IMG/VR virus record: IMGVR_UViG_3300043405_000007
Coordinates: 1 to 37,945 of that record
Length of the DNA: 37,945 nt
Direction: 5' to 3' (one strand)
Source: a virus
Taxonomy: Duplodnaviria; Caudoviricetes
Below the pieces are notes generated by a model. It had not been told where the DNA came from and ran no database searches. It saw only the letters and a program-made list of their open reading frames with translations. Shown here in pieces: positions 142-29,478 of this stretch (positions are counted from its first letter, which is position 1; every line of letters begins with the position of its first letter). The position numbers and the translations under genes are program-made.

Positions 142-411
142 TTAAACTGGCGATTCAACCCATGTAATTGCTTTGACAGCCCACATCTGTGCTCCTTGCG
201 CCTCAGTGATGGCAATTGAAGCAAGCCGTTTTTGCTCGCCCCCTTTGCTGTGATGGCGTAGCTCATTTAATTGATTGATAAGCTCGGCATAGCCCTCTTT
301 ACACTTTTGCACTGCTGAATTACCCGATGGGTTGAATGAAAGTCCAATGGCTTTTTCACCAAACATTGGGTCAATAGAAAACTGCCCTTTGCAAACTGGA
401 ATTGGCTCCAT
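142..411 (-). CDS. Small helical-hairpin protein, candidate Acb2/Tad1-like nucleotide-signal sponge
   Basis: 89 aa with SD AAGGA upstream. The C-terminal KRLASIAITEAQGAQMWAVKAITW resembles the R-x-x-S-x-A-x-T...A-x-MW-x-x-KA pattern of Acb2/Tad1-type proteins. Confidence 0.55.
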   Translation of the reverse strand: MEPIPVCKGQFSIDPMFGEKAIGLSFNPSGNSAVQKCKEGYAELINQLNELRHHSKGGEQKRLASIAITEAQGAQMWAVKAITWVESPV

Positions 412-611: not shown

Positions 612-797
612 TCACTTTTTTAGCACTGGCAAAGCCGCCCAATGAGTCCAAAATCCATGACTCAAACCCTTGTACACACCATAATGAGCGACGCCATCAC
701 CCAGTAGTTGCACCTTTACACCTATCGGACAAGTCTCTATTGGTTGCCAGTAATAATTAGGGTCAACTGCTGCCGCGCCTGTGCTATCAATTTTCAT
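612..797 (-). CDS. Hypothetical phage protein (DUF551-like)
   Basis: WQPIETCP...THWAALP motif pair; SD AAAAGGA upstream. Confidence 0.7.
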   Translation of the reverse strand: MKIDSTGAAAVDPNYYWQPIETCPIGVKVQLLGDGVAHYGVYKGLSHGFWTHWAALPVLKK

Positions 798-810
798 ACA
801 ATCCTTTTAA

Positions 811-1190
811 ACATAGCGAAACCACGAGAAGGTGATACCCCTTACTCTCAGCCATCAATCTAAATACATAAGATTGACTACTGCACACATAATGACCTAG
901 TTCTATTTCCACAGCACCCATTAAGTATGGGTCAGACTCCAATATCACCGAACTGCTGTGTTCCTGAGATGCCCTAGATAAGCTCTCGCGCCGTGGTTTC
1001 AATAAAGCGCATCACTATGTGGGTGCGGCGGTAACATCGCCCATTTGCTGCGTCAATATCCGCCCTGAGATTGAAAAGCAAAAACCCTTATGGTGTCTCA
1101 CTTCCCTCTTGGCAGAGCAACACGTTTTAAGTGTCAGGAAATAAGACCCCATAAGGGTTTAATTGTGTCGCTCTGCCAGATTGACGGGGC
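811..1190 (-). ncRNA. Candidate large structured non-coding RNA with switch-like 5' domain and pseudoknot
   Basis: At least ten complementary segment pairs (listed in findings). The imperfect pairs are G-U wobbles on the minus strand. A promoter lies directly upstream. Confidence 0.6.
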
Positions 1191-1192
1191 AA

Positions 1193-1222
1193 AGTTTATC
1201 ACATCAAACCCTAAATAGTCAA
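1193..1222 (-). promoter_or_regulatory. Sigma70-type promoter for the structured RNA
   Basis: Minus strand TTGACT-18 nt-TAAACT, with an extended -10 TG. Confidence 0.65.
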
Positions 1223-1426
1223 TCAATAATGAGATTTTTTCTCACCTTTTTGACCTGTATACGGGTTGTAGTTACCTAGACCGCCATAGTTATCCGTTTG
1301 CGTCTGATTAGGGGCGCTGCGATATGTTGGTGCGACATACGTACCATCTTGACGGAAATAGCCGTTTTGATGCACCTGAGCGTGTGCTGTGCCGATAAGT
1401 AAAAGTGATAGTGCTAGATATTTCAT
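1223..1426 (-). CDS. Small secreted/periplasmic protein
   Basis: True start probably the ATG at 1426 (SD AAGGA). Signal peptide MKYLALSLLLIGTAHA, then GYFRQDGTYVAPTYRSAPN...NYNPYTG, a motif typical of small bacterial exported hypotheticals. Confidence 0.7.
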   Translation of the reverse strand: MKYLALSLLLIGTAHAQVHQNGYFRQDGTYVAPTYRSAPNQTQTDNYGGLGNYNPYTGQKGEKKSHY

Positions 1427-27093: not shown

Positions 27094-27350
27094 ATATCTT
27101 GTATGTAATTGCATCTCTTGTTTTGGTTGCGCTATGTTTAATTGGCATAGTGAGCGATAAGTTTCACGATAACATTGTGCAGCGTATCGCCATGAGTGGC
27201 ATGGTTTTGTCATGCGTGGGTTTTGTCTATCAAATGTACCTCGGTAATTTGCCGACTAATTTTGAATTATTCGTGATCTCTGTATCACTTTATGCAATAG
27301 CTACAACATGGAAACTACGCGATGGACGAGATCAAAACATCAAAGAATGA
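27090..27350 (+). CDS. Small three-TM membrane protein (holin/antiholin-like)
   Basis: Three hydrophobic stretches; ATGA-coupled to the putative holin. Confidence 0.55.
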   Translation: MNILYVIASLVLVALCLIGIVSDKFHDNIVQRIAMSGMVLSCVGFVYQMYLGNLPTNFELFVISVSLYAIATTWKLRDGRDQNIKE

Positions 27351-29478
27351 CTTAGCAAGTTTATTGCGAGACTTTGCCCAAGGCGCTAGTAATAGCGTAG
27401 CGGGTAACGTAGCCGTTCCCGTTGATGCAATTGCATGGTTATTGCGTAAAGGCGGTGTAAATGTGCCTACAAACCCTGTCATGGGTAGTGATTGGATGGC
27501 AGAAAAAGGATTGACCCGCGAACCACAAAACAAACTTGCTGGCTTTGTAGGTGACATGGCGGGCATGGTTGCACCTTTTGCGGCTGCATCAAAAGCGCCA
27601 CAAATAGCAAGGGGATTATTGGCTGGTAGTGAAGGAGCGGCAACGGCAGGAAAATGGTTAGGAAAAGAAGCTCTTAGACCTGTTAATGACGCTATTTTGT
27701 ATGGCGAAGGCCCGCTAAGAAAAATTCTTCCTGAATCACCTAAAATTTTTATAGGGCAAAATGCTCAAAACTTTGATAAAAATAGTTTGGCGCAAGCCTT
27801 AAAAATGGAAAAAGAAGGCGTAGACCCTAAACAAATATGGTCCGAAACAGGTAGCATGAGAGCGCCTTGGGATAAGCAGTGGCGTCAGGAAATTGATGAT
27901 AGTGCTGCAAGCATTCCTTATTCTGCTGACAGGACTGGCCGCGCTGATATGTTTGTCAAACATCCTGAGTTATTTAATGGCTACCCAGATATGGCTGGAA
28001 TGGGTTTTAAAGTTGATAGTGAATTACTAAAACCATTAAACGGCAGTTATATTCCACAAAAAGACTTAATTAGTTTAGGATCTGGCAACACATCAACTGG
28101 GCTACATGAGATACAACACGCCATTCAACGTCGTGAAGGTTTTGCTAAAGGCGGGAGTCCTAGTATGTTCGATAAGCCACCTATGGATATTGCTAGGCAA
28201 AATATAGCGAGCACTGTTCATTTTGCGTCAGATTGGACAGCCACACATCCCGGAACACATATAGACGACATTTTAGACGATCTTCTTGATATTATTACAG
28301 AGCCGAAAAAAGGATTTAAGCATGAAGGTAATTATACTAATAACGACTTGGGCGCATTAATAGAGTTAATGAATACAAAAGATAAAAATGCTTTTGTAAA
28401 AAAATGGGTTGAAGAAAGTCATAAACCCGTAAAGGACAGTGTAGATCAATATAAAAAACTTGCAGGCGAAGCTGAAGCTCGTGCCGTACAAACACGTATG
28501 AACATGAATGAAGCGCAACGTCGCGCAACTTATCCGCTTGATAGCTTTGATGTGCCAGTTGACCAGCTTATAACAAGATACGGTGATGCGCCTGCAATGT
28601 CGCAAGGCAACGAACGCCTATTAAAAATACTAGAGCGTAATGGCGAGGGTTTAGCGCCTAAATATCCACAATCACAAGCATTAGAACTAGCACAGCAACG
28701 TGCAGCACTGCCAGTTAGCGAAGGTGGTTTAGGATTGCCTGCTAATAATACGGCTATGGATAGGGCTAATGTGATGGGTTTTGACACGCCAGCTTATCAT
28801 GGAACATCAAATGATTTCACGTCTATGAAAATGGGAGGCGAAGGAAAAACTTATAATGCTGGGGCTTTTTCTACAAATAATCCAGCCTTAGCAGCAACAT
28901 ACGCAAGTTCTGAAGGCGGCAATGTTTTACCTCTTTTGCTAAAAGAAGGTAGTGCCGTTAATGTTGAAGGCAAAGGGGCTAACTGGAATTGGCTGAATGA
29001 TAAAACAAAAATATCAGCTCCAAAAATATCTGTTGCAGATGTCGAGGGTGATAAACTGATGGCTGATTTATTTGGAAAACAAAATTCCATGCCGTCAATA
29101 ATTAACAGAAGTGCTTTTTCAAAATCTCTTGGGAAAAAATTTCCAGATGATTTTAGATGGAATGATGCAATGTCAACTGACGATATTGCAAGATGGGCTA
29201 ATGAGCAAGGCTATTCTGGTGTAAATTTTAATGCTGTGAGGGATAGGGGCCCAAATGGAGTATTCCATACTTCGGAGGCATCTGAACCTAGTAATATTTT
29301 TGCAACATTCAATCCCGACGATATTCGCTCACGCTTTGCAGCCTTCGACCCCTGGAGACGTAATGCAGCAATAGCCGCGACAATGGGCGTAGCTGCACCT
29401 GATTTACTAGCTAACCCGTTAGACGATAAAAATAATCGACTGATTGAGATTTTGAAGCGTAACGGACAAAAACCATAA
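27322..29478 (+). CDS. Polyvalent protein: LPD23-like + zincin metallopeptidase + ADP-ribosyltransferase-like (ART-PolyVal-like) domains
   Basis: IWSETG...WRQEIDDS (aa about 172-194); HEIQH (aa 262) with downstream GEAEAR; AYHGTS...GAFSTNNPALAATYA...GGNVLPLLL...FNPDDIRSRFAAFDP (from aa 491). Confidence 0.7.
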   Translation: MDEIKTSKNDLASLLRDFAQGASNSVAGNVAVPVDAIAWLLRKGGVNVPTNPVMGSDWMAEKGLTREPQNKLAGFVGDMAGMVAPFAAASKAPQIARGLLAGSEGAATAGKWLGKEALRPVNDAILYGEGPLRKILPESPKIFIGQNAQNFDKNSLAQALKMEKEGVDPKQIWSETGSMRAPWDKQWRQEIDDSAASIPYSADRTGRADMFVKHPELFNGYPDMAGMGFKVDSELLKPLNGSYIPQKDLISLGSGNTSTGLHEIQHAIQRREGFAKGGSPSMFDKPPMDIARQNIASTVHFASDWTATHPGTHIDDILDDLLDIITEPKKGFKHEGNYTNNDLGALIELMNTKDKNAFVKKWVEESHKPVKDSVDQYKKLAGEAEARAVQTRMNMNEAQRRATYPLDSFDVPVDQLITRYGDAPAMSQGNERLLKILERNGEGLAPKYPQSQALELAQQRAALPVSEGGLGLPANNTAMDRANVMGFDTPAYHGTSNDFTSMKMGGEGKTYNAGAFSTNNPALAATYASSEGGNVLPLLLKEGSAVNVEGKGANWNWLNDKTKISAPKISVADVEGDKLMADLFGKQNSMPSIINRSAFSKSLGKKFPDDFRWNDAMSTDDIARWANEQGYSGVNFNAVRDRGPNGVFHTSEASEPSNIFATFNPDDIRSRFAAFDPWRRNAAIAATMGVAAPDLLANPLDDKNNRLIEILKRNGQKP

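Follow-up and report, generated by a model that had tools for sequence, protein, structure and literature searches.

The element at approximately 1186-811 on the minus strand of the window (the whole 37,945-nt stretch that we analyzed, a complete circular phage genome of 37.8 kb with a 127-nt terminal repeat) is a non-coding RNA gene that is conserved across many aquatic phages and stands outside the RNA catalogs. It consists of a promoter-like site, a hypervariable leader and a core of ~260 nt in which covariation supports six pseudoknots. We are practically certain that it represents a structured RNA class and fairly confident that it is a stand-alone gene rather than a UTR, with the core likely transcribed from its own promoter. 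The preliminary description of this region as a minus-strand, pseudoknotted, non-coding RNA is borne out by the covariation and by the broken reading frame across it, although it missed nine core helices, four of them pseudoknots, as well as the whole leader (1082-1186), and the element reaches ~120 nt further 5′ than was described.

Genome setting and non-coding character

The RNA element heads a leftward early operon, in which it lies between a 67-aa ORF and a 61-aa ORF.

1223-1426 (-), 67-aa ORF, accompanying the RNA unit in this lineage only
1193-1222 (-), sigma70-like promoter (TTGACT, 18 nt, TAAACT, extended TG), a consensus match only
612-797 (-), 61-aa ORF, the first downstream gene, which also occurs without the RNA
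142-411 (-), Acb2/Tad1-type anti-defense gene (PF24729, E 3e-10), second in the operon behind the RNA

The minus-strand promoter proposed earlier at 1193-1222 is indeed present as a site, but six such sites occur in the region against 5.5 expected, so a promoter-like site alone is no evidence. A similar site occupies the same position in L089, a close relative in which the core is almost unchanged. Distant relatives of the 67-aa ORF have no RNA nearby. The ORF at 787-1002, described earlier as having a TTG start and no SD, is not conserved: in the three nearest homologs, which carry 11-13 nt indels across the core, stops interrupt all three frames, and the frame that is open across the core in 5/15 homologs is not one common frame. 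Between the window and L089 the core is more conserved (9/271 differences) than the flanking genes (20/176; p 0.0013).

Several other features of the genome deserve mention. The Acb2/Tad1 hairpin-domain gene (142-411, -) is a likely sponge of immune signaling nucleotides, and a 718-aa protein (27322-29478, +) carries LPD23 and polyvalent ADP-ribosyltransferase domains. The window encodes an initiator, ERF, SSB, NinB/G and one small Cro-like gene; searches of it for an integrase and a full-length repressor found neither, ARAGORN reported 0 tRNA/tmRNA genes, and reverse transcriptase, sought as a sign of retron or DGR RNA, is absent among its 63 ORFs and 76 neighboring ORFs. Just 5′ of the replication initiator gene, a short, possibly structured stretch (2775-2830, +) looks by eye like another small regulatory RNA.

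Structure of the core

The core has the following elements.

1070-1068/1061-1059 (-), helix H1, 44/45 cells paired in 15 homologs
1065-1063/1023-1021 (-), pseudoknot PK1, 45/45 cells paired in 15 homologs
1042-1038/1030-1025 (-), helix H2 with bulged G1026, 75/75 cells paired in 15 homologs
1035-1031/1015-1011 (-), PK2, 75/75 cells paired in 15 homologs
1010-1007/991-988 (-), H3, whose loop (1000-992) pairs with 826-818 (PK3)
987-984/969-966 (-), H4
983-981/973-971 (-), H4b
979-974/900-895 (-), PK4, from a loop, 72/75 cells paired in 15 homologs with 53 two-sided changes
960-954/916-910 (-), H5, whose loop holds the PK6 5′ strand and a subfamily hairpin
949-941/839-831 (-), PK6, 5′ strand in the H5 loop
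932-927/921-916 (-), subfamily hairpin within the H5 loop
894-893/887-886 (-), H6
892-890/880-878 (-), PK5
883-881/851-849 (-), H7
877-871/861-855 (-), H8, a variable hairpin
811-839 (-), 3′ tail, threading two loops (PK6, then PK3), with a predicted protected 3′ end

The stretch 1011-1070 (-), comprising H1, PK1, H2 and PK2, is a 5′ domain common to the superfamily, and the pairs of H6, PK5, H7 and H8 (849-894) also covary in a 64-member sister class. In the three nearest homologs 137 of the 138 cells in 14 family-guided helices pair, with 36 two-sided changes, a count that omits one mis-indexed row, P6base (3/9). PK3 occurs as 7-11 bp of different sequences in 17/17 rows, and H4, H5, PK3 and PK6 were each recovered per sequence in 17/17 rows, with differing letters, by a best-helix search without a shuffle control. 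In the 17-row alignment these four elements are out of register in the 12 farther homologs, where by-column pairing is 26/60 for H4 and 37/90 for H5. PK4 takes at least 16 sequences (16 different ones in 46/88 loci), so few bases are invariant across the superfamily. PK6 and PK3 together would protect the 3′ end of the RNA; a further candidate helix, in which the J2/3 linker would pair with the 3′ tail, was rejected as it had no covariation. To our knowledge, few natural RNAs of ~260 nt have six covarying pseudoknots.

How does this fold compare with the one drawn from the window alone? All ten helices listed in the preliminary description can pair, and their wobbles are, as it said, all G-U on the minus strand, but homologs support only five. 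Compensatory changes sustain 818-826/992-1000, 831-839/941-949, 910-916/954-960 and 855-861/871-877, and in 916-921/927-932 they sustain the base. The rest gave way in the three nearest homologs: 811-818/1013-1020 (13/24 cells paired), 846-851/964-969 (12/18) and 1034-1039/1054-1059 (10/14) have 0 two-sided changes each, 1027-1031/1060-1064 (10/15) has one, and 841-845/978-982 (10/13), with two, clashes with better supported helices, although a CUU/AAG pairing of 3-4 bp, noted by eye, is possible in that area. On folding energy the proposal fared only modestly, with a z of -2.1, 6/200 shuffles as good and a minimum-energy fold that differs from the one proposed; a single sequence therefore does not fix the structure.

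The leader

The leader (1082-1186) consists of two long crossing helices that end in a U-tract, and the stretch 1075-1190 folds at z -5.6.

1180-1186 (-), predicted transcript 5′ end and strand of helix P0, pairing over 7 bp with 1057-1051 inside the core
1178-1165/1123-1110 (-), leader helix A, 14 bp, crossing helix B
1160-1136/1106-1082 (-), leader helix B, 24 bp; terminator-like, with A′ in the loop and a U-tract behind it that runs to ~1074

The crossing helices are found in 16/16 subfamily loci versus 15/320 shuffles, with the U-tract in 14/16, and in the sister class they are found in 29/49 loci versus 4 control stretches. The leader sequence is rewritten in L089 with both helices kept, the sequence of helix B differs widely among close relatives, and combinations of leader and core reassort in contigs from sequencing runs. 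P0 reaches at least five Watson-Crick pairs in 16/26 loci that have the core insertion versus 16/79 control stretches. Since the transcript 5′ end thus pairs with the core insertion, with matched changes (e.g., GTCAA/TTGAC, GTCAG/CTGAC, GTCGA/TCGAC), leader and core fold together.

We think it rather probable that the leader is an RNA-controlled attenuator of the P4 type. In phage P4 the leader-derived CI RNA pairs with seqA and seqC, which ends transcription early (PMC4825925, in part). Like the P4 leader (seqA, CI RNA, seqC) and the P1 C4 antisense RNA, the leader described here is promoter-proximal, lies before a likely termination point, varies in sequence among relatives while its pairing is kept, and has a long hairpin loop that pairs with an upstream segment, the seqA-like complementarity being the 14-bp helix A in 16/16 subfamily loci. 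Unlike them, it has no Rfam match, an intrinsic-type U-tract end and no clear seqC (the best candidate for a second target downstream of the leader is 8 bp with G-U, at 1067-1060), and it is followed by a 260-nt non-coding core where P4 and P1 have small ORFs and replication genes. The leader would be a variant of the already known P4/P1 type; the core RNA class is new.

L232, L241 and L254 have a leader that shares 92% identity with the L260 leader; behind it come a different, structured-looking non-coding region of ~400 nt, for which an Rfam search gave no match, and then a DNA methylase gene. These three loci were rejected as core homologs because the core alignment fails, 50/200 shuffles being as good.

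Homologs and superfamily

Pattern scans of IMG/VR place at least ~170 loci, not reduced to species, in the superfamily, and the relatives of the window come from freshwater, leaf-litter and unlabeled sequencing runs. The public run that matches the window best carries a freshwater label and may be where it came from. A scan with the leader tail returned 36 loci, among them L242, a distant core homolog (1/200 shuffles as good), and the pattern derived from L242 in turn returned at least 120 loci (~230 estimated). Filtering these and L242, 121 loci in total, on motifs that the pattern does not contain retained 102 and set aside 19, including two true members. At an 88% identity cut-off the resulting sister class has 65 distinct loci; all of them except L341, which carries a long insertion, were aligned (64 loci). 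The 15 helices scored in this alignment comprise 56 pairs, with 93.5% pairing and two-sided changes in 34 of the pairs; 0/500 shuffles reach the covariation score. The structure itself was derived from the covariation of the same alignment after weak positions were dropped and with 20 columns fixed by the pattern.

The subfamily of the window was delimited through the 5′ domain, a scan for which returned 112 loci, 88 of them with the domain and enough flank. When these are clustered by their 3′ part, one cluster of 17 includes the contig of L089. With the window and L089 both left out, profiles recover the window at E 6.6e-35 from the three near homologs and at E 4.5e-22 from the 12 others, and model R2, also built without either, matches 1009-1073 at E 5.7e-4; its one match on 41 control phage records was false, lying inside coding sequence. 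In the clusters the same 5′ double pseudoknot is also attached to other 3′ domains, at least eight in number (L453/L490/L510, L456/L498, L433/L476, L446/L471, L457/L520, L428/L524, L451/L497 and L474/L518), and G100 (L538, L546) carries two different RNA classes.

Are the two classes related? The AGCGA sister-class model R1 has no match on the RNA in the window or L089, and the sister-class HMM likewise misses the window. No one model covers both classes; what connects them is their topology, the common 5′ domain and a weak similarity in sequence. A descriptor of the PK1-PK6 topology, written with the window already known, matches the window and 41/64 sister members but 0/3000 shuffles and 0/538 genome tiles, and the mean alignment score of the window to the 64 sister members beats 200/200 shuffles and 182/182 genome tiles, the best tile narrowly. 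When the window was added to the sister alignment by MAFFT, 16/56 pairs formed versus 20.6 for shuffles, a test that is uninformative because the window was misaligned.

BLAST searches of cultured phages and plasmids returned no match for the region or for L425, and BLAST of L291 found leader fragments only, in two uncultured records. Two metagenome scans yielded no homolog of the RNA, and of the 87 loci from the first pattern scan L011 alone was real. Three RNA-labeled sequencing runs contained 6-7% of the words, and we draw no evidence from them. The class belongs to phages that have not been cultured, and bacterial genomes almost lack it (in GTDB the sister-class pattern occurs on 3 short MAG contigs only), a likely reason for its not being listed by genome-based RNA screens.

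Genomic context and mobility

The RNA unit is an accessory gene that moves freely among neighbors. It is absent from the close relatives L093 (99% complete) and L108. The 38 co-oriented downstream ORFs include eight ParB-like and five major head genes and two each for PAPS reductase, terminase small subunit, methylase and the C-terminal half of an initiator. A common protein partner was not found, no protein cluster occurring in more than 9/17 records, and a conserved mini-ORF after the core was looked for and rejected. Behind the core there is a promoter-like site in 21/65 sister loci versus 0/180 controls, and a terminator-like hairpin in 1/65.

Some records show more particular arrangements. 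In one phage group (L265, L273, L291, L297, L327) the RNA is flanked by a head-assembly-like gene and the major head gene, and a promoter-like site often follows it. In 3/4 integrase-bearing records an RNA copy lies within ~1.1 kb of the integrase (G100, G092 and G094 were noted). In G018, G028, G030, G031 and G039 a stand-alone C-terminal half of the initiator (frames of 126-155 aa) is close behind the RNA, and three profiles did not find the N-terminal half there.

Relation to known RNAs

The preliminary description could not assign the RNA to a known family, and the Rfam 15 covariance models at the gathering threshold gave no match for the window, and none for 37 related loci (17 sister loci and 20 more) except one tRNA among the 20. 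We found no description of the RNA in the literature compared, most subscription journals lying outside the search; that literature included the accessible parts of bioRxiv 10.64898/2026.09.22.753630 and PMC10085705. Nor does the available text of bioRxiv 10.64898/2026.10.21.760802 describe it, though the 5.14 million clusters of that study might include it. The candidate structured RNAs of Fremin 2023 come from the same database (IMG/VR) and the same intergenic phage setting, but the models in the part of that work available are 29-151 nt long and so could be at most fragments of this RNA; the portion of the supplement searched for motifs gave no match, and the remainder may hold such fragments (PMC10690425).

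Like ROOL and GOLLD, the RNA is phage-associated, protein-free by context and rich in pseudoknots. It differs from them in having no Rfam match, a switch leader and a 5′ domain that can be swapped, in showing no association with tRNAs (one tRNA in 20 loci) and in being less than half as long as ROOL (581 nt with three pseudoknots; PMC5737381, in part). With the RNA-based origins of cluster A mycobacterial prophages (PMC7157519, in part) and ColE1 RNA II it shares being non-coding and, as predicted, transcribed and under RNA control, and sometimes lying beside ParB-like genes; in contrast to these, it replaces neither integrase nor initiator and its 3′ end folds back.

Possible functions

A major question arising from these observations is “What does the core do?” Our preferred reading, which we offer tentatively, is a stand-alone RNA gene with a P4-type attenuator leader and a stable, compact core that acts in trans on a host target; that the core does so by binding a protein or ligand, and thereby helps infection, is a suggestion of equally guarded standing. 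Attenuation, stability and host target are all things that we infer. On closure of helix B, transcripts would stop at the U-tract and leave a short hairpin RNA with A′ in its loop. By pairing with strand A of newly made transcripts, this RNA would determine how much read-through occurs, and the hypervariable A sequence would make the control phage-specific, as CI RNA does in P4. Read-through would yield the core, whose 3′ tail would lock into two loops and resist trimming without a terminator, and the folded core could then act on, for example, a defense sensor, a nuclease or a signaling nucleotide. The choice of such a target is pure conjecture, the neighboring Acb2/Tad1 gene being a single case.

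Could the unit instead be an RNA-based replicon, the core serving as initiator or primer RNA and the leader as copy-number and incompatibility control? There is precedent in RNA-based prophage origins beside parABS (PMC7157519, in part). ParB-like genes follow the RNA in the eight loci noted above and are themselves followed, in two records, by apparent helicase and primase ORFs named from their sequence only; replication genes adjoin about a quarter of sister-class loci; 5/23 RNA-bearing records have the C-terminal half of the initiator only, 0-1.5 kb behind the RNA; and the core has no terminator behind it. We nevertheless think a replicon unlikely, because an initiator N-terminal match coexists in 8/23 records, including the window, integrases are not depleted (5/37 versus 9/37, p 0.37), the unit is also found ahead of capsid genes and behind lysis-like, terminase-like or portal-like ones, pseudoknots lock the 3′ end so that it is not free to hybridize with DNA, and GTDB has the sister pattern on those three short contigs only. 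A new ribozyme class, in which the core or the 60-nt double-pseudoknot 5′ domain cuts itself from the leader or acts on another RNA, would suit the compact double pseudoknot common to ~10 different 3′ domains, and also the unpaired positions outside the search pattern, which are invariant or nearly so in 64 sequences. That no Rfam ribozyme matches even at E 10, and that P0 joins leader and core into one folded molecule, make self-cutting or related catalysis quite improbable in our view. The core topology presumably differs from that of HDV-like and pistol ribozymes, and likenesses to pistol ribozymes, the fluoride riboswitch and RNase P were set aside on what we take to be their topologies.

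In the window the element heads its operon and no terminator precedes 612-797, an arrangement that might instead suggest cis action on the genes downstream, by a riboswitch-like or put-like switch or antiterminator. In the window and L089 a six-codon ORF (795-815, -) has a stop that overlaps the start of 612-797, and in 22/65 sister loci a GGGG run lying 5 nt ahead of an ATG falls within PK3. However, that ATG is absent in most loci and its ORFs mostly have 2-20 codons, a new promoter-like site follows the core in the 21/65 loci given above, and the next ORF is on the opposite strand in 19/47 by a rough ORF call. The downstream genes are unrelated from homolog to homolog and gene 612-797 also occurs without the RNA, which disfavors the cis translational regulation of this gene that was among the initial suggestions, and we give cis action in general little credence. 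It is highly improbable that the element works as single-stranded DNA, be it a primase signal or a packaging signal, or that the core is a selfish passenger: the G-U/G-T strand bias cannot separate RNA from single-stranded DNA and the sister class has one copy per record (46/46), but a promoter-like site and a U-tract leader lie on the same strand and the loci have no mobility protein in common.

Conclusions

If a stand-alone RNA acting in trans is the right reading, what kind of work might it do? Pseudoknots and invariant bases have been associated with demanding biochemistry (Weinberg 2017; PMC5737381, in part), and by that study's criteria RNAs of this kind are usually ribozymes, ligand binders or protein mimics. 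The alignment, the pairing model and the matched variants enable cleavage assays, probing and cryo-EM at once. We tentatively picture a modular superfamily in which one double-pseudoknot 5′ domain and a P4-like leader have been joined to ~10 knotted 3′ domains that may do a protein-type job, be it new catalysis, RNA-initiated DNA replication or an immunity sponge. The leader, for its part, would extend RNA control of the P4/P1 type from small protein genes to a non-coding product.
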